64,000 nt of DNA from Eledone cirrhosa (taxonomy: Eukaryota). The notes under the pieces are model-generated. The model had not been told where the DNA came from. It did not search any database and saw nothing but the letters and a program-made list of their open reading frames with translations. The position numbers and the translations under genes were made by a program. The stretch covers positions 205,902,001 through 205,966,000 of the forward strand of contig OZ024742.1 in assembly GCA_964016885.1 (NCBI GenBank). The letters are read 5' to 3'. This document shows, piece after piece, positions 17,805 to 64,000 of the stretch. Each line of letters begins with the position of its first letter. Within the stretch, counting starts at the first letter, position 1.

Positions 17805-18916
17805 GTGTGTGTGTGGGGGGGGAGGGGGTTACGTGCTCTGATGTTGGGTTTGAATAGTTTTTAGGATTCCCCAGTTCAACAGCCAGTACGTTAAAGAAAA
17901 TTGATAGTTACAACAATAAAGGCTGAACAGAGAACACAATTTTTAACAAACTTTACAATAATTTGTACAACCATAATGGAAATTCCAAGTAACAGAAAAT
18001 ACATAAATTACATTGTTCGAGCTTCAGAGTATACAATATTTTTTGTTCGGCCCTCGGGAGCAAAGATGAAGAGATTGTTTGGCGAGCTCACCCTAGAACA
18101 TCCTACATACAATTGACCATGGGAGAAGCATGGTTTTCCCAGATGAAGGGCAGCCACTTTTAGGGTTTGACCCTGAACTTTGTTGATGGTAAACGCGAAG
18201 CTTAGTCTCTCTGTTGCTCTAGTAACATTTTGTCTTCTGGAAAATCTGATCTTGAGGCAAGGCTGAGACGTTTTGGGTGGCATATCGACAGTAACAATGA
18301 TGATAAGCCGTCTGTGCTTTCGTGAAATAAATACGTTTGTTTATATTTTGTTTTTATGTATGCAAAAATATCTGTACATGAATATATAATTATATATATA
18401 TTAAAATAACAGATTAAAGTTTAAGCAAAGAATCGCTGCTTTCACCCTTAACGGGATCTTCTGAAACTAAAAAAATCAATCTGTGAACGCAGAAGTAAAT
18501 ATTTCGAAAAACGTTACAGGGCGTGAGGTATCTTTGCACTGAATTAATTAAAATTTGGTTAGAAGCGAAGTCAATGCAGACAGGCAGCCAGACAGACAGA
18601 TATTATAAGCGTGTAACGTTATAGCTATGTATCTAATGCAGAAAGCCAGACATACAGAGACATATTATAAGGGCGCGATGTTATAGCTATGTATCTATCT
18701 AAAAAGACAGACTAAGAAAGATAGAGGAATGTCGTATAACCGGAAGTGTTGACATATGAAAACTTTAAAGAAGTGAATATTTAAATAAACGATAAAATAT
18801 CTTTAATCTTTTAACGAAATTTAGAAGACAAAAATACTCTCACTTTCTTACTTAGAAAAAGTTACATCTATGGTGCTTTTAGGTCCAGCCGTTTGGCGTC
18901 AGCTTTATAATATAGA
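17643..18916 (-). mobile_element. Non-autonomous Helitron H1 with PIF1-like helicase C-terminal remnant (18008-~18205)
   Basis: Minus-strand 5' TCTATATTATAAAG at 18916, GC hairpin near the left end, inserted at A|T. Translation FAFTINKVQGQTL...PCFSHGQLYVGCSRV. Confidence 0.8.
18402..18520 (-). mobile_element. Fragment of Penelope family A pLTR with hammerhead-like motif (18418-18468)
   Basis: Near-identical to 22203-22320. Confidence 0.8.
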
Positions 18917-19693
18917 TGCCCCTTGTATGAATAAAATGCTTACTCTATCTAGTGTAGTCAGAAAACTAGATTTGATAGAGAAAAGCTAAAGTTATCTTTG
19001 AATTTAGCAAGCAAAATGACTTAAGAATCCGTTAAAATACTCTAGGCACCAGACAAAAGAAAATCTTTTTTTGTTGTCCAGTGTTATATTTCTTTTAAAT
19101 TATCACAAATCCGCATATGAGCGCAAATATTTTACATATCACTGTTATGTCCAACTCAATTGATTGAAGTTAATGGCATGAATAAACTGAAAATATTCTA
19201 GAAGATAACCCTAGGCTAGGCTGCTTAATGTGGTTTATGTCTGAAAGGAATCAATTGAGTTGAATTTGTAACAAAATGAATGAAGGAAAGAAAAGTTTAA
19301 TAAAGAAAAAAATTTGTTCTGCGACTTGTAAAGTAGGGGGAATGTCTGTTTGGTTTTCTCAAAGGCATTAGCAATATATGTGAAATGAATTATTTCTAAC
19401 TAGGAATTGAAACTTAATTACAGCTTAACAGGAGAAAGATAACAGTTAGAAAAGATCTTGTAAATGATTGATATAAATATTAGCAGCAATAGTAGTAGTA
19501 ATAGCAACTACAGCAGTATAACAACAGAACCTGAACATTCACTTGATTCACAAACAGCAGCTGCATTAGTAGAAGCAGCTTTCTCAACATTATAGGTTAG
19601 CACCATTATATATTGTATGTATATATATACACATAAATATATATATATACACATGTGCATAGACATACACATATGCATATGTATACTTAAACG

Positions 19694-19725
<32 letters not shown>

Positions 19726-20277
19726 TATATATATATATATACACACTAGCAGCAGGACCCGGCATTGCACGGGGGAGGAAACGTGAAATAGCAACACGCA
19801 TATGCAAAGATTGAGGAATGTAGCTGTGTACTTTTTGAATTCCCTTATTCTCAGGGAATGATTGTTCATCTACTGGAAACGTAGAACACCAGCAGGCCCG
19901 AATCCTGAAACATCTGCATACATGTGCAAAATCTGAAAAAATCAGCTGGATACTCTTTAAAGGTACTAAATCTTAGAGTATGATTTTTCTTCCATTTGGA
20001 GAAAATCGGTTAGGTACTTTTCGAGTTTTATAGATTCGCACCCAGTCATTCGGACAGACATCATCAGTTATGTCTATTGCACCTGCAGGATTACTGTACA
20101 GAGTAAAGACTGCAATGCTTGAGTAAGACATATCATGCAACCGCACAGCATGTTGGGCCTTCCCCACAGGAGAACATAGCCTCTTCGTAAATCTACCCAA
20201 TCTGATATAGACCGAACTGTTATATCTGATGCCGAACGCTTCGGAGTTACTATTGGGGTCATCATCAACAATTTCAA

Positions 20278-20336
20278 GTGGGGGCCCTAAAAAGGGCCTT
20301 ATGTGCGTTCAGATGTAGCCCTTAAAAGGACTTTGT
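20278..20336 (-). promoter_or_regulatory. Two histone-mRNA-type 3' stem-loop motifs in Helitron H2
   Basis: Minus strand AA-GGCCCT-TTTT-AGGGCC-CCCA (20283-20298) and CAA-AGTCCT-TTTA-AGGGCT-ACA (20317-20332). Both are 6-bp stems with a 4-nt U-rich loop. Confidence 0.6.
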
Positions 20337-20653
20337 TCACTGGCAGCCCTTAAAAAGAAATTGGTTGCTTTCCCTGGCAGCCCATAGAATAACTCTGTAT
20401 ACGTTCAGAATTTGTTCATATACCTTAAATTGTCGCGCCAATTGTCAACCAATGGAGGGTTTCTTCTCTGCAGGTGTTCACCTTAAACCAAAGGAAACAG
20501 ACGTTTTGTTAAGAAACAAAAGTAAAAGTAAACCAGGCTTGTTAAAGAAATGGCGATAACGTACCTACCTCCTCGCTGTTGCGCTTATAACACTGTTATA
20601 TCGGATGCTGAACGCTTTGGAGTTAACACCGGGGTCGCCGTCAACAATTTCAA

Positions 20654-20712
20654 GTGGAGGCCCTAAAAAGGACCGTATGCGCGTCCACTTGTAGCCCTTA
20701 AAAGGACTTTGA
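20654..20712 (-). promoter_or_regulatory. Two further histone-type stem-loop motifs in Helitron H2
   Basis: AC-GGTCCT-TTTT-AGGGCC-TCCA (20659-20674) and CAA-AGTCCT-TTTA-AGGGCT-ACAA (20693-20708). Confidence 0.6.
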
Positions 20713-21758
20713 ATGCGTTCACTGACAATCCTTAAAGAGATTTTGTTTGCATTCTCTGGCAGCCCTAAATGTATGTCGTATGTCTGTTCACGAATTACGT
20801 CATGGATGGGGAACACATGTCAGTCTGAATGTGCGACGTAGTCAATTGTGTGAAAACCAAGTAGGGATGTACGTTTAAGTAGGGATATTGAGATGCTGAA
20901 ATCAGCGTGGAAACGTAGCTGCAGCAGAAGGGGATCATAGTGCAATTAGCACAAATGCTGGGCGGCACTAGTTGCACTGCGTTTACACAGCAACAAAGTT
21001 GCGACAAAAGAAGGCACCACGGAATTAGCACAACCACTGTTCGGTGTGCTTGCGCAGGGCGTTCATACTGCAGTGTAGGTGCAGCAAAAGGGGTCTTAGT
21101 AGAAGTAGCACAGATGTGAGTTTTACGGTGTCAATAACACGGCAACGTACACAGGACCCGGATTTGCGCGTGATGAAAGCACGAAGCGTCAACAGAGCAC
21201 CGACAAAAATTTTAAGGTCCTCCTCATTTCCTCAATCCCTGAAAATGGTTCTGCATAAGAGTAAGTAAGTGTTGTGTCCTCTGTTAAATAAACCAAATTT
21301 TTAACGAAATATTATACGCTACATACGATGTTTAAGTAGCGTTTATATTGAAAATGAAAATGACATGTAATGCCCAATGTTAATTCATAAATATCCTAGA
21401 AATCACTGATGGAATCGGAAATTTTTTTCCCTCACTGCAATGGAAGGGGACTAACTAATGTGTGCTGCAAATTTCGAGGAAATCGGCTGGATTATCTTTA
21501 ATTTACTCCCCAAAAGAGCCTAAAAATGCCTTTAAAATGCGTTTTTTGCCTAGGGTAGAAAAAGTTATTATTTTTTAGCCCATTGCACTTTAAGAAATAT
21601 AAGTAATGCATGTGTAAAGTTTTGAAAAAATCGTTCCGGTACTTATCGAGTTTTATGGATTTACACAGACAGACATCCTCTATTATATATATATATATAT
21701 ATATATTATAATGAAATGACAGGAGGCTGGATTTATGTAAATCCTTGAAAGGTTTATT

Positions 21759-23196: not shown

Positions 23197-24378
23197 CTAT
23201 CCGTTAGGGTATAACGTGGGGCTGTAATACAGGAAAGTTTTGTGCAATTTATGTTTACAAGCCGAAATTGCCTCAGATTTTTTGTTTAAGATGTGGTCTG
23301 TGGCGTAGAGTATTTCCAGGGCCTCAGCGGCGCAGAGGTCACATGGTCTTTTATTTCCGTAATACGATCTAGCCCTAGCTAGGATCTCCCAGTGTAACTT
23401 ATATTGGGTGTGGTTGTCTTTTAGACTCCAGATATAAGCTGAAAGTGACGTCATATTCCTTCTTAGAGGGTAACGAAAAGAATGGGTATGCATGTAAAGA
23501 CGCTGCTTGAAACTATTGGCGGTTAACCCTATGTAGGCCCTACGGGACGTGGGTGTTACAACCTTACATTTGTAGACAATGTTACTAGAGAGGCATTTCC
23601 CGGATAGGGGGCAATCAGCCCGATTCCTACAATTACAGTTAGTACTAACTACAGGGTTGCACGTGTTCCTACGGCTAGGTAGTTTAGCTAAATTTGAAGC
23701 TGTGATGTTATGTGCAAGGTTAGGAGTCGTAGAGTAAGAAATTTTAATAGTATTTCTATTAAAAAGTTTACTATATTTATGTGTAGGGGGAAAATGCTTC
23801 GTAATAAGGGAAAGAAAGATCTTAGCTAATGGTGTGGCCACCTCCATATTATATGGTGGGTTAAACCAACAAATGCGACGGGATCTATTTCTTCTAGGTC
23901 TATTTTCGTACTCTGTATAAGCTACTTTAACGACAAATCCACTTCGAGCAAGAGCTTCATTGTAATAAGTGGAATGGTCGTTGAAAATGCGCTCGTTGGT
24001 GGAAAGACGGGAAAGCCTCAACGAAACGTTTTTTACCAGGTTCTTGGTTATGCTGGCAGGATGGTTGGAATGCTTACTTATGTAATTAAGCGTATCATTC
24101 GGCTTTCTATACGGGTAATACAACCCCTTCAATAAATTGAGGGTAACGTCGAGGTAATTAACGACCGAGAGATTGGCCTCAACCTGTATAGAGAGGTTGA
24201 AGCCTTTAAAGAAGGCTGTGAGTTCTTTTCTGAACCTGTCGCAAGCACGAGGTCCGCACTTAGTCATGGTCAAAAGACCATCGTCACGGTACAAACCACC
24301 GCCCGCGTTGGGGAATTCGTCCTTGATAGAGAAAAGGAGGAAAAGGCCAATAAGTTCAGTAACTCCGCAGTTCTCCAA
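23197..24378 (-). CDS. Truncated PLE polyprotein: RT C-terminal half (YRDD), CxCx5C linker, GIY-YIG endonuclease; probably Hydra-clade-like
   Basis: GLYRDDGL, YLDVTLNL, WFNPPY, CNCRNRADC, IVYKC...YIGLT...FKQR...H. The first ~13 aa of the ORF track come from the inverted pLTR. Confidence 0.85.
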   Translation of the reverse strand: MENCGVTELIGLFLLFSIKDEFPNAGGGLYRDDGLLTMTKCGPRACDRFRKELTAFFKGFNLSIQVEANLSVVNYLDVTLNLLKGLYYPYRKPNDTLNYISKHSNHPASITKNLVKNVSLRLSRLSTNERIFNDHSTYYNEALARSGFVVKVAYTEYENRPRRNRSRRICWFNPPYNMEVATPLAKIFLSLITKHFPPTHKYSKLFNRNTIKISYSTTPNLAHNITASNLAKLPSRRNTCNPVVSTNCNCRNRADCPLSGKCLSSNIVYKCKVVTPTSRRAYIGLTANSFKQRLYMHTHSFRYPLRRNMTSLSAYIWSLKDNHTQYKLHWEILARARSYYGNKRPCDLCAAEALEILYATDHILNKKSEAISACKHKLHKTFLYYSPTLYPNG

Positions 24379-24660
24379 GCTCCACATATGACTTATTATC
24401 TTCGTTTTTTCGTTCATTGCCAGAGAACGTCTCTATGCACCACCTAAGAGAACATTAGTCTACAGCCTCTTTTATACCATAAACGTGGTTCTGTCTTTGC
24501 ACGTAATTGTTTTTCACTGCTCCTATTAATGACGTATTATTCGTTTTTCACGTTCTTTGCCAGCGAACGTTTCCACGAACCAAAGTATCGTCTTCCTGTC
24601 TTCCTCCGGTTGCAACGTTTTTTGAAATATCCAGTTCTGCGTTTACAGATTGACTTTGTT

Positions 24661-27126: not shown

Positions 27127-29770
27127 ACACGGGGAACACTGTGACGGCTTCTATGGAGTCCATGGAGGCTACGGGTTTGGCACAAGAAATGAAGAAGGTT
27201 TCAGGCTTCTGGAATTCTGCAATGCCAATGACATGTCGATATGTAACACAAACTTCAAAAAACCCAACACCCATCTGATCACCTATAGATCAGGGGAGCA
27301 TTCTAGTCAGATAGATTCTATCCTCATCAGAGGATGAGATAGATGGACGGTTGTAAACACAAAAGCCTTCCCTAGTGAGGAATGTACCTCCCAACATAAC
27401 TTAGTTGTCAGCGACCTCATTGTCAGAACTAGATGAACTTGGAAACAGAAGGCAACCTGGAGAAGAAAGATCTGGAAGCTGAAAGACCCCTCAGCCAGTA
27501 ACAGATTTAAAGATATCTTACTCGACGTCTATGACAGTAAAGAAGAACAGATAGAGATATTCAATCTAGAAGAACACTTGGAGTTCCTAAAAAATAACTT
27601 ACTAAAGGCGACGGATGAGATTTGTGGTTTGAGCAAGATCACAGGCAGGAGGAGAGTGACTTGGTGGTGGAACAATAAGGTAGATGAGGCAATTAAGGCT
27701 AAGAGACAGGCATGGAAAGAATGGAAGAATGAGGGAAGTAGGGTACATTACATAGAGACCAGGAGGGAAGCTAGGCGACAACTATACTTAGCTAGAAGGG
27801 AAGTGGAGGATAGAAAATTCAAGCATGTTTTGCAGCATGAGGACCAGAAAAAGAGGTGTTCAGGATTGCGTGGCAGTGTGTTAGAGAAAATTGTGATGTC
27901 ATTGGAGAGACGTGTATCCAGAATGATAAAGGTGAGCTTGCCCGCACAAGGGCTGAGAAGAAATATGCGCGGAAGAGCCATTCTGAAAGGTTACTAAATG
28001 AGGAGGATGCATGGGAAAAAGAAACCCTACCCAGTACAAGTCAGCAGCAGCGTAGTAAGTAAGGCAATTAAAGATATGAAGACTGCGAAGGCAAGCGGTC
28101 CATCAGGTATAGCTGCCGAGATGCTGAAGGCATCTGGGTCGGTAGGTCACACCATAACCACACGTATTTTTAACCAGGTAATACTAAAGGGTATCATACC
28201 AAATGATTGATGCAGCAGCATCATTGTCAACTGCTACAAGGGTAAAGGTGATAAACTAGATAGAGGAAACTATAGAGGTATAAAGCTGATGGACCAGGTC
28301 ATGAAAGTAACAGAAAGAGTTATAGCACAGTTGATTAGGGACTGGGTAAAACTAGCTGAGATGTAATTTGGGTTTGTGCCAGGAAAAGGCACCACTGATG
28401 CCCTCTTCTTTGTGAGGCAGTTACAGGAAAAGTACCTAGCTATAGTAATATAGCGAGGAATTTAGCATACAGGTCGGTATCCACCAGGGCTCTGTTCTTA
28501 GCCCCCTCATGTTCATTATAGTATTGCAGGCAATAACAGAGGAGTTTAAGATCGGATACCCATGGGAACTCCTACATGCGGATGATCTCGCACTTATAGC
28601 TGAATCTATGGTGGAACTAGAGAAGAAATTCCAAACATGGAAGCAGGGACTAGAAAGAAAGGGTTCTCAAAGTCAACCTGACAAAGACTAAGGTCCTCGT
28701 AAGTAGACGAGAAAACAGAGCCCAGATCCCATCAGGCCTTGCTCAGTATGTAGGAAAAGTGTAGGTAGGAACTCCATCCTCTGCCCCAAATGCAAACAGA
28801 GGGCGTGCGGTATCTTTACACTGGAGTGAAGGGGGTTTCCTGAAAAGATAAAATGCCGGTATACCTAGGGTACACAAGAGATGTAGTGGGATCTCAGGAA
28901 GCTTAGCCAAGAATGTAGGCTTTACATGTAGCAGTTGCACCGGGACAGCAAGCAGCAAACGGCTGCAGGAAACAAGCACCACCAAACTCTGGGATGGCTC
29001 TGTAGAAACAGTAGACAGCTTTTGCTACCTAGGTGACCGAATTAGCAGCGGAGGTGGGTGTTCGGAAAGTACAGTAGCCAGGGTAAGATGTTCAGGTAAG
29101 ATGTTCAGCGAGTTACTGCCACTGCTAGCTGCAAAAGGCTTTTCCCTCAAAATGAAAGGCAGACTGTATGATGCTTGCATACGAACAGCAATGTTATATG
29201 GTAGTGAGACTTGGGCGTTGTGTGCAGAAGACTTGCGTAGATTAGAAGGAAACGAAGCTTGCATGCTCCGATGGATGTGTAATAGTAATATACATGAATG
29301 GCAAATCATAAAGATATTGAGAGACAGACTGAGCATAAGAGGAATCAAATGCTGTGTGTAGGAGAGGAGGTTGCGTTAGTATGGACATGTGAAGCGTATG
29401 AAGGATGACAGCTGCATAAAAAGATGCAGAGCATTAGAAGTCGATGGAAGCTGTGGAGTGGGGAGACCTAAGAAGACCTGGGATAAGGTGATAAAAGCTG
29501 AACTTACCCAATTGCACCTCTCAAAGGCGATGACACAGGACCGTGACCTCTGGTGTCACGCAGTAATACAGAGGACCTGACATCCCATGGGTACTAGCCG
29601 AAGCTGAAGCATATAGACAATATGCCCCCACCCCTCCCACAGCAAGGTGGCCGTGGAGGTGCCACGGCAAAAAGCACCCAGTCTACACTGTAAATGAGGT
29701 TGGTGTTAGAAAGGGCATCCAGCTGTAGAAATCAGACAAAATCAGTTTCCGTATGAGCAAGACAATGTCA
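27127..29770 (+). mobile_element. 5'-truncated, internally deleted, degenerate copy of the RTE LINE
   Basis: Colinear with 45560-48340, with stops, frameshifts and a deletion spanning RT motifs. Confidence 0.92.
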
Positions 29771-29832
29771 GCCGACCGGGCAGTTGAACTTAACTTTACT
29801 TGGGAGTTGTCTTCTACAGATGTCGAACCGAT

Positions 29833-31654
29833 ATACCGACTGGATCGCCCACTCTGTCCACCGCCTGCAAACCGTGAGCTTGAAGAAAAACTCTCGAGGC
29901 TAAAACATTCCGTACTTAACATCTTACGGAAACAGAAGAAGATAGCCCCAAACCTCTCCAGGACACAACAACTCGTCCTGAAGAACCTGCGGAATAGGGA
30001 ACTTATATACTTACCATCCGACAAAGGTAAAGAGTTTTGTGTCATCTCTCAAGCCACATACAACAACCTAGCCTTTGAACACCTAGGCGACAACGAACTA
30101 TATACAGAGATGCCGGAGATGACTGCAGCCCAGATCGAAAAACAGGCCAACTCCATCTGGTTCGACATCTGTAGGAGAAGACAATTCCCAAATAAAGTTA
30201 AGTTCAACTACACCACTAGAAATAGCAGACTGCCCACTTTCTATCACCTCATCAAGACCCACAAGAATAGTACTAAGAGACAAATAAGACCCATCGTCTC
30301 TAGCATAGAAGGACCCCTATACAAAATCTCCTGGCTCCTCTCCCAGGTCCTCAAACCTCTACTCTCCACCTTTCCCGGGCATGTCAGTAGCTCTGACGAG
30401 GTCATACGTAGACTACACCAACTCCAGCCAGAACAACTTAAACTAAATAGATACGCCTTTAGCCTCAACGATGTCTCCCTCTACACTACAGTCCCCGCTC
30501 ATCCAGCTGTCGATTTATGGACGGACTGCGTGGTCGCAGAGGACATCCACTGCTACGGCCTCCATCCGACGGACATACACCAGCTTTTGTCCTTCACAGT
30601 GGACAACACGTACTTCACCTTCTACCACCACACATACAGACAGACAACAGGATTACCCATGGGATCCAGCCTATCGGGACTGCTGGCCATCACCTATATG
30701 AACCAGCTAGAAAGCCGAGCCCTCAACACCTGCCATTCCTATACCTTCTTCACTCGATATGTAGATGACATACTCATCCTTACATCATCCCGTGAGGAGG
30801 AGGATAAAATATACACGACATTCTCCAGCATGGACGCCAGTATAAAGTTCAGCATGGAACACCCCGAAGACCGCGGATCCCTATCCCTACTGGACTTCCA
30901 ACAGAGGAAGGCAACATCCACACCTGCTTCTATAAAAGAGCCGCCAGCAGGGACCTGCTCGTACATTTCAGATCGGTCCTCTCAGCCGGCGCTAAGTTCA
31001 TATACATAAGGAACGAACTACACGTATCTGGAACAATGCACCGACGCAAGAGACTGAGACACACACACCACACATTTCCTGGAAGTACTCAAACTGAACG
31101 GATACCCGACGTCCACCACGAACCGTGCCAGAAAGAACAGAGGACACCACACCCGAGGCACTAACACCTGCTTCATGAAGCTCCCACACTTCAGTGACGA
31201 AACAACAACAGCCATCCGCAGAGCTATCAGACGAGATGGACAAGATATCCAACTAGCCCACTCAGGACCTTCTCTACGCGGACAGCTAACAAAAAGACAC
31301 TCCACCAGACATGACAGCCGCTGCAAGCTAGCCAACTGCCCCATCAACGAAACAGACCTATGCCACCAGGCTTACGTCGTATACAGATTAGAGTGCGACA
31401 AATGCAGCAATTTCTACGTAGGTAGCACCACCAGACCACTTCACATAAGAATAAAAGAACACCTCAATACTAACGCTTCCCCATTTAAGAAACACCTAGT
31501 GATATGCAAAAACAGCGACAAAAACATAACAGTTAGGATAGAAACTAAGGAAAGAAACCTCGGCAATCTTAGAATTAAGGAAACACTGATTATAGACAAA
31601 ACACAACCACCAATCAATAATAGACTAGAACTCAACACCCAATTTATAACATGA
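29833..31654 (+). pseudogene. PLE polyprotein with one frameshift near 30900
   Basis: SDKG, KTHK, RPIVS, DVSLYT, QTTGLPMGSSLS, RYVDD, then VVYRLECDKCSNFYVGSTTRPLHIRIKEH (GIY-YIG) in the second frame. Confidence 0.9.
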
Positions 31655-40545: not shown

Positions 40546-41865
<1,320 letters not shown>

Positions 41866-44699: not shown

Positions 44700-47600
44700 T
44701 TATTGTTAATTTTACTGATGTAGTATTAACTTGGATATTTACCATGCGACCCTCAGTTCCTACCTCACAATTTCCCTCCCCCCCACCCCCACACACCACC
44801 ATAGTCTATTCGACCAATCAAACCTAGCATGCCATTTCCACTGCTGCTGCTGCTACTACCTGCCTAACTAACTCTCTCCTCCTCTGGCGCATCCCAACAC
44901 ACCCTGCCATTACCCCACCACCACTGTCCTTCTAGCCCTCAATTTTCCCACCGTTATGGATGGATGAGCTGGGAATACACGAGCAACTCTGAATCAATAG
45001 ATGAAATATGAATCTGCGAGCTACCAAGCACCCACGTGAAGCGCCAACCCAGAGACCCTCCCCTACGAGTGTCGACAAATGCCCAAAACTCCGAGTTGGT
45101 ACCATCAATGTAGGCTCAATGAAAGGAAGAGCAGGAGAAATCGTAGAAATGCTAGAGCGAAAGGAAGTTGATGTATGCTGTGTGCAAGAGACTAGATGGA
45201 GAGGAGGGTCTGCTAGAGTCCTTGTAGGAAAAAGCCAGTGCTACAAATTTTTCTGGGTGGGAAATGACGATGGGATGGGTGGTGTAGGTATACTATTAGC
45301 TGACAAGTGGGTAGATAAAGTAATCTCAGTGTACAGGGTAAATGCAAGAATCATTAAACTCAGACTAGTCCTGAATAAGACAATTACCACAATAATATCA
45401 GCTTACGCACCCCAATCGGGGCTGCCAGACGAACTTAAGGATAGGTTTTACGAGTCCCTAATACACACTACTGCTCTAACAGACGACAAGGACTTCCTAA
45501 TCATTGCAGGAGATTTTAACGGACACGTAGGTAAACACTGCGACGGCTTCAATAGAGTACATGGAGGCCATGGAGTTGGCACAAGGAATGAGGAAGGATT
45601 CAGACTTCTAGAATTCTGCGACGCCAATGACATGTCGATATGTAACACAAACTTAAAAAAACCCGACAACCACCTGATCACCTATAGATCAGGGGAGCAC
45701 TCTAGTCAGTTAGATTTTATCCTCATCAGAGGACGTGACAGATGGACGGTCGTAAACACAAAAGCCTTCCCTAGTGAGGAATGTACATCCCAACATAGCT
45801 TAGTTGTCAGCGACCTCACGGTCAGAACTAGACGAGCCCTGAAACAGAGGCCAACCTGGAGAAGAAAGATCTGGAAGCTGAAAGTCCCCTCAACCAGTAA
45901 CAGATTTAAAGATATTTTACTCAACGCCTACGACAGTAAAGAAGAACAGATAGAGACATTTAACGTAGAAGAGAACTGGGAGTTCCTAAAAAATAACTTA
46001 CTAGAGGCGACGGATGAGGTTTGTGGCTGGAGTAAGACCTCAAGCAGGAGGAGAGTGACTTGGTGGTGGAACAATAAGGTAGATGAAGCAGTCAAGGCCA
46101 AGAGACAGGCATGGAAAGAATGGAAGAACGGGGAGAGCAGGGTACATTACATAGAGACCAAGAGGGAAGCTAGGCGACAAGTATACTTAGCTAGGAGGGA
46201 AGCAGAGGATAGAAAATTGAAGCATGTTTTACAACGTGAGGACCAGAAACAGGAGGTATTCAAGATTGCGAGGCAGTGTGTCAGAGATAGTTGTGATGTC
46301 ATTGGAGAGAAGTGTATCCGGAATGATAAAGGTGAGCTTGCCCTCACAAGTGCTGAGAAGAAAGATGCATGGAAGAGTCATTATGATAGATTACTAAATG
46401 AGGAGAATGCATGGGAAGAAGAGACCCTACCCCACGTAGACCCTATAGAGGGACCAGCAGTACAAGTCAGCGGCAGCGTAGTAAGTAAGGCAATCAGAGA
46501 TATGAAGATAGGGAAGGCAACCGGTCCATCGGGTATAGCTGCCGAGATGCTGAAGGCATCTGGGTCTGTAGGTCACACTATAACCACACGTATCGTTAAC
46601 CAGGTAATACTAGAGGGGGCCATACCAAAAGATTGGTGCAGTAGCATCATTGTCAACTGCTACAAAGGTAAAGGCGATGCACTAGATAGAGGAAACTATA
46701 GAGGTATAAAGTTGATGGACCAGGTCATGAAAGTAACAGAAAGAGTTATAGCACAGCTGATTAGGGACCGGGTGAATATAGACGAGATGCAATTTGGGTT
46801 TGTACCAGGGAAAGGCACCACTGATGCGCTCTTCCTTGTGAGGCAATTACAGGAAAAGTACCTAGCTAAAAGTAAGCCACTCTACTTGGCATTTGTCGAC
46901 CTTGAGAAAGCCTTTGACAGAGTTCCACGTGCAGTAATCTGGTGGGCTCTTAGAAAACTAGGAGTAGATGAATGGCTTGTGAAAGCGGTACAAGCCATGT
47001 ATAGAGGAGCAGTCAGCAAAGTTAGGATTGGCAATGAGTATAGCGAGGAATTTAGCGTACAGGTTGGGGTCCACCAGGGCTCTGTTCTTAGCCCTCTCCT
47101 GTTCATCATAGTCCTGCAGGCAATAACGGAGGAGTTTAAGACCGGATGCCCATGGGAACTCCTGTATGCTGATGACCTCGCACTCATAGCTGAATCTATG
47201 GTAGAACTAGAGAATAAATTCCAAACCTGGAAGCAGGGACTAGAGAGAAAGGGCCTCAAAGTCAACATGACAAAGACTAAGGTCCTTATAAGTAGACGAG
47301 AAAACAGAACCCAGATCCCCTCAGGGAAATGGCCTTGCTCAGTATGTAGGAAAGGTGTAGGTAGGAACTCCATTCTTTGCCCCAAATGCAAACAATGGGT
47401 ACACAAGAGATGTAGCGGGATCTCAGGAAGCTTAATTAAGAATGTAGGATTCACATGCAGCAGCTGTGCTGAAACAGCAAGCAAACAGCCACAGGAAACA
47501 AGTACCACCAATCTCTGGGAGGGCCCTGTAGAAACAGTAGACAGCTTCTGCTACCTAGGTGACCGAATTAGCAACGGAGGTGGGTGCTCAGAAAGTACAA

Positions 47601-48428
47601 TAACTAGGGTAAGAACGGGATGGAAGAAGTTTAGGGAACTACTACCACTGCTAGCTGCAAAAGGCTTCTCCCTCAGAATGAAAGGCAGACTGTATGATGC
47701 GTGTATCCGAACAGCGATGTTGCATGGTAGTGAGACCTGGGCGCTGAAGGTGGAAGACTTACGTAGATTAGAGAGAAACGAAGCCTGCATGCTCCGATGG
47801 ATGTGTAACAGTAATATACGTGAACGACAAAGCATAAATGAATTGAGAGAGAGACTGAGCATAAGAGGAATCAAATGCTGTGTGCAGGAGAGGCGGTTAC
47901 GCTGGTATGGACATGTGATGCGTATGAAGGATGACAGCTGCATAAAAAGGTGCAGAGCACTAGAAGTTGATGGAAACCGCGGAGTGGGGAGACCCAAGAT
48001 GACTTGGGATGAGGTGATAAAAGCCGACCTTACCCAACTACACCTCTCAAAGTCAATGACACGCGACCGTGACTTCTGGCGTCACGCAGTAATACAGGGT
48101 ACCCGACCTCCCATGGGTACATGCTGAAGCATATAAACAATATGCCCCCCCCCCCACCGCAAGGTGGTCGTGGAGGTGCCACGGCAAAAAAGCACCCAGC
48201 CCACACTGTAAAGTGGACGTGTAGGCGCCACGAAAAAGCACCCAGCACTCACTGTAAATGAGGTTGGTGTTAGGAAGGGCATCCAGCTGTAGAAATCAAG
48301 CCAGATCAGTTCCTGTATGAGCAAGGCATGGTCAGCCGACCAGACACTGCCCACAACAGGACAACCCGTCTAACCCATGCTAGCGTGGAAGAACGGACGT
48401 AAAACGGTGATGATGATGATGATGATGA
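44700..48428 (+). mobile_element. Apparently full-length RTE-clade LINE with (GAT)n tail; 5' boundary uncertain
   Basis: Single long ORF, ~280-bp 3' UTR ending ggacgtaaaacggt(gat)n. No TSD recognised. Confidence 0.9.
45008..48127 (+). CDS. RTE ORF: APE endonuclease + reverse transcriptase with inserted PHD-like C4HC3 finger (1039 aa, uninterrupted)
   Basis: GTINV, VQETRW, SAYAP, GDFNGH, LDFIL (APE). NYRGIKL, QFGF, FVDLEKAFD, GVHQGSVLSPLLF, LYADD, FCYLG (RT). Confidence 0.96.
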   Translation: MNLRATKHPREAPTQRPSPTSVDKCPKLRVGTINVGSMKGRAGEIVEMLERKEVDVCCVQETRWRGGSARVLVGKSQCYKFFWVGNDDGMGGVGILLADKWVDKVISVYRVNARIIKLRLVLNKTITTIISAYAPQSGLPDELKDRFYESLIHTTALTDDKDFLIIAGDFNGHVGKHCDGFNRVHGGHGVGTRNEEGFRLLEFCDANDMSICNTNLKKPDNHLITYRSGEHSSQLDFILIRGRDRWTVVNTKAFPSEECTSQHSLVVSDLTVRTRRALKQRPTWRRKIWKLKVPSTSNRFKDILLNAYDSKEEQIETFNVEENWEFLKNNLLEATDEVCGWSKTSSRRRVTWWWNNKVDEAVKAKRQAWKEWKNGESRVHYIETKREARRQVYLARREAEDRKLKHVLQREDQKQEVFKIARQCVRDSCDVIGEKCIRNDKGELALTSAEKKDAWKSHYDRLLNEENAWEEETLPHVDPIEGPAVQVSGSVVSKAIRDMKIGKATGPSGIAAEMLKASGSVGHTITTRIVNQVILEGAIPKDWCSSIIVNCYKGKGDALDRGNYRGIKLMDQVMKVTERVIAQLIRDRVNIDEMQFGFVPGKGTTDALFLVRQLQEKYLAKSKPLYLAFVDLEKAFDRVPRAVIWWALRKLGVDEWLVKAVQAMYRGAVSKVRIGNEYSEEFSVQVGVHQGSVLSPLLFIIVLQAITEEFKTGCPWELLYADDLALIAESMVELENKFQTWKQGLERKGLKVNMTKTKVLISRRENRTQIPSGKWPCSVCRKGVGRNSILCPKCKQWVHKRCSGISGSLIKNVGFTCSSCAETASKQPQETSTTNLWEGPVETVDSFCYLGDRISNGGGCSESTITRVRTGWKKFRELLPLLAAKGFSLRMKGRLYDACIRTAMLHGSETWALKVEDLRRLERNEACMLRWMCNSNIRERQSINELRERLSIRGIKCCVQERRLRWYGHVMRMKDDSCIKRCRALEVDGNRGVGRPKMTWDEVIKADLTQLHLSKSMTRDRDFWRHAVIQGTRPPMGTC

Positions 48429-61997: not shown

Positions 61998-62520
61998 TTG
62001 CCTGGAAACTTGCACGTTTACAAGACCCTTGACTCTATGGCTGATCCGGATGAAGTTGTTAATTACCCCACAGAATTTCTTAACTCCCTAGACCCTCCCG
62101 GATTGCCACCACACTTACTGCGACTTAAGAAAGGTGCCTTGTCATACTCCTCAGGAATTTGGAACCCCGAAGGCTTTCCAACGGCATGCGTCTGGTCATC
62201 CAAAAGGCGATGCCTCATGTTATTGAGGCAACAATACTTACAGGATGTAGTAAGAGAGATACTCTCTTCATACCAAGGATACCTCTCATTCCATCCAGTA
62301 AAGACATTGCTTTCACATTCAGAAGGCTGCAATTCCCTCTTTGGCTCAGTTTCGCCATGTCAGACGCTGACGGTCATAGAAGAATCGTAGAAAAACCGTG
62401 CTTCTCCCATGGTCAACTATATGTTGGCTGCTCTCGAGTGGGGAGCCGACATAACCTATTTGCTTTTGCAACTCGCGAGAAAACCCAAAAGTATTGTAGG
62501 CACCCTCTCCGCCAACAAGT
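61998..62520 (+). pseudogene. PIF1-like Helitron helicase C-terminal fragment (frameshifted)
   Basis: [63 protein letters not shown]. Confidence 0.9.
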
Positions 62521-62768: not shown

Positions 62769-63067
62769 CTAAGGCCGTTTTTGTGGCCACCGACTGTTAC
62801 ATGCTTTTCTAGGTTACAATCTCAAATAACAAGCAAAGCAAATATGACACACCAAAGTGGTGTGAAGGACTTCTTAAGGGCCACCACCTCTAATCGGAGT
62901 CGGCTTTGCTGGCAGCACCGCTGCTGAGACTTTTAAGAGTGAACAATCCAAGGCTCTCTTCAGGGCCACCAACTTTAAATTGTTACCATCGGATTCGTCT
63001 TTGCTGGCAGCACCGACGCAGAGACATTTCAAAATGAACGTTCAAAGACCCTCTTTAGGGCCAACAC
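62769..63067 (+). promoter_or_regulatory. Four histone-mRNA-type 3' stem-loop motifs downstream of the Helitron helicase
   Basis: AA-GGCCGT-TTTT-GTGGCC-ACC (62773), AA-GGACTT-CTTA-AGGGCC-ACCA (62867), CCAA-GGCTCT-CTTC-AGGGCC-ACCA (62952), CAAA-GACCCT-CTTT-AGGGCC-AAC (63047). Confidence 0.6.
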
Positions 63068-64000
63068 CTATAAATTGTTACTTCTATAGTCGTGTTTAAT
63101 GGAAGTCTTTTGGTTCATTTGAACGACTACTCCATTGAGAGTTATACCGGTCAACGCCGGGTACCTCTGCTAGTTTTATATAAATTGACTATACACTGAT
63201 TATTACAGTCAAGCTTTAACATTCTTTAAAAACAACAATTATCTGCAAAGCCTTGACTACACATACTCCTTCTTTCCTCTGTTTTCATTCAAAACACTAA
63301 CTATATATTGCCATTTAATTTTTAGTCAATTTAAACTTCAGAATTTACTCTTGTCCTTCATAAAAATTCATTAACACTAACGATTCTTTTTTTCATTAAG
63401 GGTGTAATTTCAATAGATAAACACAATTCTGTTTTAGCACACTACTTTAAGTATGTTAGCTTCCATTCAACTTAATATACAAGAGCTCAAACTGAACATA
63501 AGCCACATTAATCTTACACATTTATACAATCTTTCTGTTAAGTGAGGCTTGAAAAAGTTATTGATACCTTAGACTAATAAAACAAAACCTCTATAAATTA
63601 TTACTGGGGTTGAGATGGGATACTAACAAAACATTGAAAAACACAAATAAAAGGTAATAAAAGGATGATGATGATGATGGTGGTGGTGGCAAGGTAGTGA
63701 ATTAGGAGGAAGTAGATGCTATTTTTATACATTGTTAATTTTTCTCATCTATAAAGTAATTGACTCATCAATTGATTAACTCCTGAAATAAATTTGGTAA
63801 ATGGTTGTTTTAAATTGAAAATTAACTGCCAGATTTTAACATATTGCTATAAATAAATCTATTCAGAATTGCATGTTAAGTTAAATATCTCGATTTCAAT
63901 GTAGGTAAAAGGAAAAATTACATAAAGAATATCAAACAAACAAAATCACCACCTGTACAACCACCAACTAATCACCATGCCAGCACCACCACCACTACCA

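Follow-up and report, generated by a model that had tools for sequence, protein, structure and literature searches.

One clade of Helitrons in the genome of Eledone cirrhosa appears, from comparison of its sequences, to have kept a module of about 48 bases in the tail behind its transposase gene, while the rest of that tail diverged beyond recognition. The module is centred on a hairpin of the type that ends animal histone messages, and was met in a stretch of 64,000 nucleotides (NCBI GenBank assembly GCA_964016885.1, contig OZ024742.1, positions 205,902,001 to 205,966,000 of the forward strand) that we call the window, and to which all coordinates without a locus or contig label refer. The window holds three Helitrons of this clade, H2 on the minus strand and H5 and H4 on the plus strand, and an earlier note, made from the letters alone, had proposed that the recurrence of such hairpins in otherwise dissimilar Helitrons, in the same orientation and with a compensatory base pair, points to selection on an RNA or single-stranded DNA element. 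Read along the sense strand, the module consists of AAGTGAAYG (containing the block GTGAACG), a linker of 6-7 bases, the stem-loop, ACCA, a second linker of 4-5 bases and the motif AAATTGTT. The reading we favour, and hold tentatively, is that it is a histone-style 3'-end signal, which would bind SLBP and act on the sense RNA of the element.

Retention of the module is best seen by comparing H5 with M, the name given here to the more abundant sister family of H2 (copies include L076 and L078). Neutral coding sites between the two are saturated: in their helicases 96 of 146 residues are identical, as are 56 of 146 third codon positions and 15 of 46 four-fold sites. The tails that follow (1060 bases in M, 700 in H5) align only at their modules, with local scores of 44 and 37 and everything else at or below 25 (200 shuffles averaged 22 and peaked at 31), and BLAST between the M or H2 tails and those of H5 returned no match. 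Within the module identity is about 80% and is concentrated in four blocks, the internal linkers being different. Among nearer lineages (M, the two H2 units and L045), no change is seen in 37 of the 40 columns that make up the two hairpins and AAATTGTT, as against 49 of 133 columns elsewhere (Fisher p 1e-10). The earlier note had foreseen that the motifs might turn out to be neutral remnants of one captured histone-gene fragment, embedded in extended homology of H2 and H5 and conserved no better than their flanks; alignment outside the motifs gave the opposite result on both counts. Conservation of the module, where neutral coding sites are saturated and nothing else in the tails aligns, suggests selection in the active lineages.

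The carriers belong to one helicase clade. Over the C-terminal 340 residues, helicase identity is 81% between M and L045 (an autonomous relative with the same type of tail), 61-70% between either of these and H5, 53-62% between any of the three and H4, and 33-57% between all four and the module-less groups. A quick maximum-likelihood tree with a midpoint root joins H5 to L045 and M (Shimodaira-Hasegawa-like approximate likelihood ratio test, SH-aLRT, 96), with H4 as their sister (91) and the module-less groups outside; the module-bearing families were reached via the module or the tail, and close module-less relatives may exist outside the sample. The module is homologous across M, H2, L045 and H5, including flanks that are absent from histone genes, and is represented in H4 by a half-site. 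Since the carriers form one clade and share homologous non-histone flanks, a single acquisition is indicated rather than repeated recruitment. The hairpins do recur in sense orientation within Helitron 3' tails, as had been claimed, and the supposedly dissimilar Helitrons in which they recur prove to be lineages of this one clade with a homologous module. Canonical Helitrons carry gene fragments, whereas what has been kept here, across lineages as far apart as H5 and M, is a short, signal-like sequence.

Hairpin clusters in the Helitron tails

H2, a copy of a gene-less Helitron family of about 2 kb, occupies 19746-21710 (minus strand, as for all features of H2). It contains two hairpin clusters, the 3'-proximal unit 1 at 20216-20420 and the upstream unit 2 at 20592-20790, which are the two copies of a tandem duplication; the 376-base spacing reported in the earlier note is that of a direct repeat, in which 20216-20335 and 20592-20711 are 86% identical. 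Every hairpin and half-site sequence that the note had listed for H2 was found on the minus strand. Stem-loop A of unit 1 (GGCCCTTTTTAGGGCC, 20283-20298, with the arms GGCCCT and AGGGCC around the loop TTTT, then CCCA) is recovered by sequence, by Rfam and by folding, and its counterpart in unit 2 (GGTCCTTTTTAGGGCC, 20659-20674, with the arms GGTCCT and AGGGCC around TTTT, then TCCA) by sequence. Stem-loop 0, AGTCCTTTTAAGGGCT (arms AGTCCT and AGGGCT around TTTA, then ACA), stands at 20317-20332 in unit 1 and at 20693-20708 in unit 2; its basal pair is A-U and its third pair U.G. The basal change from G-C to A-U had been advanced as compensatory evidence in its own right, and is probably one event common to the paralogous units. 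Decayed half-sites complete the clusters (AGGGCTGCCA at 20341-20350 and 20757-20766, and the shorter GGGCTGCCA at 20375-20383). The downstream motif described earlier is present as CACTTGAAATTGTT behind both full hairpins, and AAATTGTT, which is kept in the M, H2, L045 and H5 lineages, lies at 20267-20274 in unit 1 (+9 to +16 after the stem) and at 20643-20650 in unit 2. Chance does not account for the hairpins: the pattern GGYYCTTTTNAGRRCC, with at most one mismatch, has three matches in the window against 0.02 expected, a number reached by none of 100 shuffles. Both the minimum-energy RNA fold and the centroid contain stem-loop A of unit 1, and the fold of the cluster holds both hairpins.

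Canonical Helitrons have a RepHel gene and a 3' subterminal hairpin followed by CTRR, insert at A|T and carry captured fragments. H2 has the canonical 3' terminus, GCCGGGTCCTGCTGCTAGT (GCCGGG-N7-GCTAGT; 19763-19745), comprising the subterminal hairpin, CTAG and the host T, and running into a (TA)n/(CA)n microsatellite. This end is exact, and the 5' limit is placed where similarity to other copies ends (21675-21713), beside a (TA)n run at which a TC end next to a host A is not fixable. The family is interspersed, with 486 first-look candidates; among the 45 matches listed, the alignment runs from 19607-19776 to 21675-21713. In the 3.0-Gb genome the terminus pattern occurs 15,510 times and its reversed control 8 times, so that the genome holds at least 15,510 Helitron 3' termini of this one terminal type, which fall into several subtypes by their 7 variable bases. 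At many of them a long microsatellite, (TA)n, (CA)n or (GA)n, follows the CTAGT end directly, for example at 19700-19745 and 41751-41860 of the window and at 7440-7600 of L045.

No helicase similarity was found in the H2 copy by tblastn (20780-21710), leaving it without a recognisable RepHel gene, and being gene-less the copy simply inherits the module. By eye, comparison with L045 (6640-6830) and with L076 and L078 of M shows the spacer between its clusters (20401-20591) to be what is left of the last helicase codons (..GTGTTATAA) and of the proximal 3' untranslated region; the equivalent of the spacer stands, again by eye, directly 3' of the stop codon in the autonomous relatives. The duplicated unit therefore comprises the gene end, the proximal tail and the hairpin cluster. 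In the autonomous relatives (L045, and L076 and L078 of M) the cluster is on the sense strand, 290-510 bases past the helicase stop and upstream of the terminus, and L045 has open reading frames of 310, 666 and 508 residues adjoining a Helitron_like_N match.

H5 and H4 share this build of helicase end, tail and terminus on the plus strand. H5 has a decayed helicase C-terminus at 62004-62499, identified by tblastn, the Pfam Pif1 2B domain and sequence, with its stop at about 62497-62499. An array of four hairpin units follows at 62773-63062 (a, 62773-62788; b, 62867-62882; c, 62952-62967; d, 63047-63062), and the element ends in GCCGGGTACCTCTGCTAGT at 63156-63174. Hairpins c (GGCTCTCTTCAGGGCC) and d (GACCCTCTTTAGGGCC) are each followed on the same strand by AAATTGTT, at 62977-62984 and 63072-63079, as the earlier note had it. 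H4 (41232-41750; tblastn and sequence) consists of a helicase C-terminus with its stop at 41505-41507, a 240-base tail and a terminus at 41732-41750; the half-site previously noted in its tail, TCAGGGCCACCA, is present at 41605-41616, about 100 bases past the stop.

These elements agree with canonical Helitrons in their terminus (hairpin and CTAG, then T) and in having relatives with Helitron_like_N and a Pif1-type helicase, and gene-less derivatives and multi-end arrays occur here too. As a short tandem repeat spread by an element, the module also resembles the satellite-like central repeats of non-autonomous Helentron-type elements in oysters, in so far as these are described in an excerpt of PMC7492417, but the carriers here are canonical Helitrons with CTAGT ends, and the repeat, with a histone-type hairpin as its core, belongs to the transposase gene's tail.

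Across the genome, the pattern TTTTWAGGGCC-N7-10-AAATTGTT has 83 exact matches and the stem-loop with ACCA has 129, while neither occurs in the control. Thirty sampled matches to the latter comprised 18 M-type modules, 11 H5-type modules and 1 unrelated repeat derived from a histone H4 3' end. When only the flanks were fixed (GTGAACG, 29-33 free bases, AAATTGTT) there were 426 matches against 41 in the control, and by hand count 95 of the first 100 listed enclose a stem-loop-like insert. The modules are in places arrayed: four of H5 type stand 4,403-4,409 bases apart at C1:163631077-163644311 (L207-L210), in what looks like a head-to-tail Helitron array, and up to four stand in tandem with 95-base spacing at C1:196239315-196239645.

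A metagenome scan with the helicase alignment gave 21 loci at no more than 57% identity, with no strict stem-loop behind the helicase; they are too distant to bear on the clade, and their tails are short, with 250 bases or more downstream of the helicase in 17 of the 21. In 7 of these loci the pattern matches lay ahead of the point where the helicase match ends, and in 6 of the 7 they were codons for the residues E-F-L-N-S. The helicase codons for E-F-L-N-S (GAATTCTTGAATTC and variants; L175-L182, and L045 at 6193) form a hairpin that passes a loose histone stem-loop filter, and scans of Helitrons by pattern only can therefore yield false positives.

Likeness to histone 3' ends and its limits

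The host reference set consisted of 25 distinct 3' ends behind H3, H4, H2A and H2B reading frames of the same genome. All 25 have the arms GG[C/T]CCT and AGGGCC around the loop TTT[T/C/A], 20-38 bases after the stop. With the 3' end of animal replication-dependent histone messages (RF00032, served by SLBP and the U7 small nuclear ribonucleoprotein) the Helitron module shares a stem of 6 base pairs, a 4-base loop and whole 16-mers, since GGCCCTTTTTAGGGCC is a 16-mer of host H3 genes and GGTCCTTTTTAGGGCC one found on host H2A and H2B genes; it likewise stands in sense orientation behind a protein-coding gene. The hairpins at 20283-20298 and 20659-20674 both have two G-C pairs at the base of the 6-pair stem, a U-A pair at its top, and U as the first and third of the four loop bases. 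The Helitron flanks were counted as ACCCA-like on the 3' side and A-rich on the 5' side. Directly behind the stem, host genes have ACCT, CCCT, ACTC and the like, never the ACCA of the Helitron family form; the first post-stem bases of the window copies (CCCA and TCCA), C and T, both occur in host genes, and CCC- opens the flanks of host H3 genes. In front of the stem the Helitron hairpins have A at -2, but within CACAT, ATAA, CCAA or CAAA, as against the AAC usual in the host. The genome also codes, on contig C13, for the RNA-binding domain of an SLBP.

The pairing of the stems bears on which molecule carries the signal. At family level they include the U.G pairs of GGTCCT and GGCTCT opposite AGGGCC, of AGTCCT opposite AGGGCT and of GGCCGT opposite GTGGCC; such pairs hold in the sense RNA and would be A.C mismatches on the other strand, and therefore incline us towards RNA. 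Of 90 stem cells in 15 chosen units, 87 are paired, and at two pairs both sides change. The polyadenylation hexamers AATAAA and ATTAAA are uninformative, with 0-1 found in the tails and 0.2-1.1 expected.

If the module is a histone-style signal, the ancestor of the clade would have either acquired or evolved a short 3' signal like that of histones. The transcript of the transposase gene would run into the tail, where SLBP would bind the first good stem-loop, and would be cut a few bases past the stem, behind ACCA, giving a message without poly(A). The stability and translation of this message would then follow SLBP, and hence S phase, a tie that would suit an element that depends on host replication and is copied via a circle of single-stranded DNA. 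Tandem duplication would supply the additional stem-loops as spares, which would decay and be replaced. It is possible, though doubtful, that a DNA transposon clade has in this way taken over the machinery of histone messages, with a transposase message borne by SLBP and confined to S phase, which would make it the first selfish, non-histone client of that machinery. One passage of PMC4604434 describes histone messages as the only cellular messenger RNAs that end in a stem-loop instead of a poly(A) tail. We found no literature linking Helitrons to histone stem-loops or SLBP; papers on transposons together with histone stem-loops were off subject by title, and neither 'transpos' nor 'non-histone' occurs in the available portion of a recent preprint (10.64898/2026.10.14.759114). 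Were the favoured reading correct, the histone 3'-end pathway could be borrowed by a transposon, and Helitrons, whose regulation is poorly known, would have a simple link to DNA replication. Were the module inert, it would still show cleanly how a short, signal-like sequence can be carried along in Helitron tails. Searches for histone stem-loops can pick up transposons, and the module is short and abundant, and shares its genome with bona fide histone signals.

A number of observations weigh against a histone-style signal, the first of which concern the likeness itself. The Rfam model Histone3 (RF00032), with a gathering score of 34 bits, gives the real histone genes of this genome 36.1-42.4 bits. 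The Helitron modules score 21-29 bits (28.6 for the best M copy; 27.1, 25.3 and 21.3 for H5 copies), and the match at 20259-20303 on the minus strand of the window reaches 23.1 bits with an E value of 8.7e-4 in 1 kb; a scan of the whole window found no Rfam family at gathering score, nor did one of 14 Helitron loci at the same level, hence no hammerhead in those families. In every H5 unit the first loop base is C, whereas it is U in all 25 host stem-loops. The module has no histone gene, stands in several tandem copies and lies about 270-550 bases from the helicase stop (H5, M and L045), in contrast to the 20-38 bases of the host histone genes; a distance of 25-60 bases from stop to stem-loop is called critical for stability control in one part of the preprint cited above (bioRxiv 10.64898/2026.10.14.759114). 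The host downstream element is a conserved run rich in A/T that closes with GT, often as AAAGT; this GT lies at +18 to +20 from the stem, while the GT of the Helitron AAATTGTT is at +14 to +16, some 4 bases nearer. Over 50 comparisons, the 34 bases behind the Helitron stem had no significant similarity to 10 histone flanks (best uncorrected p 0.06), and genome searches for U7 (RF00066, cut-off 34 bits) gave one match of 29.7 bits and three of about 23.4, with no convincing 5' end or hairpin. The suggestion of the earlier note that AAATTGTT sits about where a histone downstream element would be is unproven, given the offset, the flanks and the U7 searches.

Further points on the same side concern the sampling of the conserved units and the fate of individual copies. 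The blocks behind the count of 37 unchanged columns in 40 were defined after looking, and the 15 units used to count stem pairs were selected for being hairpins. Single copies decay as neutral sequence would: in a hand count, every pair is kept in 19 of 29 M-type hairpins, tolerated and disruptive transitions are about equal (roughly 17 against 20), and the number of double compensatory changes, three, is near expectation. Behind the best stem-loop of the L045 type ACCACTTG is lost, the H4 lineage has the half-site alone in 3 of 3 copies (window H4, L132 and L134), and the stability of the H2 cluster fold is no greater than that of shuffles (z 0.21). The module is, moreover, a minority trait among the Helitrons of this genome: it is absent from 19 of 20 Helitrons with long open reading frames picked by Rep-domain score, including the intact L046 of 1718 residues, and 30 termini taken in genome order, with 1.5 kb scanned at each, gave no strict stem-loop and one decayed M cluster. 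The earlier inference of selection is supported for the module as such, conserved above its flanks with neither extended homology nor a histone remnant, and does not extend to single copies. Rfam threshold and context place the module outside the histone 3'-end family; it may work like a member of it.

Two further features of the histone signals of this genome were observed. Several downstream elements at the real histone loci L056, L057, L070, L071 and L073 have the form AGT, 1-3 bases, ACT (for example AGTCGACT, AGTATACT and AGTCACT); this short palindrome might form a hairpin or a U7 site in two parts. A gene-less foldback repeat is present in dozens of copies (L014, L023, L024 and L025, for example L025 1380-1720), many of them on contig C18. 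Its arms, of at least about 135 bases each, are inverted histone H4 3' flanks, stem-loop and downstream sequence, facing outwards about 90 bases apart. These foldback repeats make up most of the genome's 70 Histone3 matches above the Rfam cut-off, and some adjoin real histone genes (L053, L058).

Competing explanations

The alternative that survives best is that the module is a neutral relic, a histone-like fragment gained once, multiplied by tandem duplication and without function, which owes its conserved look to recent spread or to exchange between families. We judge this unlikely, if by no means negligible. It fits with Helitron tails that here consist of tandem duplications, with the neutral decay of copies, with the want of a module in most Helitrons and with the existence in the same genome of another mobile repeat, the foldback element, built from a histone H4 3' end. 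Whole units are also degenerate at family level, namely stem-loop 0 of M, the second unit of the L045 type and, for the H5 type, the d unit in its GGCCAT variant and a third unit confined to the longer arrays, to which the half-site of H4 may be added. What a relic does not readily explain is an identity of about 80%, in four blocks, between lineages with saturated four-fold sites; recent exchange would have had to move 48 bases only, because nothing else in the tails aligns. The tails also lack the traces that a captured fragment might be expected to leave: tblastn with H3, H4, H2A and H2B found no coding remnant in them beyond noise (E at or above 0.5), and nucleotide matches to histone flanks are no longer than 20-23 bases. 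Capture of a whole histone gene is rejected on the same tblastn result.

A second alternative, in our view rather improbable, is a cis element with another job, in which the hairpins would act as single-stranded DNA in rolling-circle transposition, or GTGAACG and AAATTGTT would set a site for RepHel or a host protein, and the likeness to the histone stem-loop would be incidental or convergent. The strand that is sense for the reading frames is also the one that carries 5'..CTAG-3', and orientation therefore does not separate an RNA from transferred single-stranded DNA. The blocks GTGAACG and AAATTGTT are without counterpart in the 25 host histone 3' ends, and the H2 family, though gene-less, retains two clusters. 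On the other hand, 16-mers identical to host histone stem-loops with the family's ACCA directly behind the stem make coincidence unlikely, and the G.T pairs seen at family level would be weak in DNA. Four of the five M-type termini in the sample of 30 lack the cluster, which is therefore not needed in cis, and the true termination hairpin stands elsewhere, at the terminus.

Independent recruitment of histone stem-loops by unrelated Helitrons is very improbable, for although the H2/M and H5 tails are unalignable outside the module, the non-histone flanks GTGAACG and AAATTGTT are shared and the carriers form one helicase clade in the quick, midpoint-rooted tree described above (SH-aLRT 96, with H4 as sister at 91).

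Other elements of the window

A fourth helicase C-terminal fragment lies at 18020-18208 on the minus strand and is 68% identical to the L046 type; its tail is without a histone-type hairpin and is interrupted by a (CA)n run. Between 22196 and 24734 stands an element whose inverted terminal repeats (about 370 bases, 97-99% complementary) enclose an open frame of 411 residues (23197-24432, minus strand) without a Pfam match, and a lone repeat arm of the same element is found at 18370-18518. The plus strand further holds a Penelope-like element with a reverse transcriptase and a GIY-YIG nuclease at 28449-31654, and a long interspersed nuclear element at 45005-48127 with an open frame of 1040 residues (endonuclease, reverse transcriptase and PHD finger).

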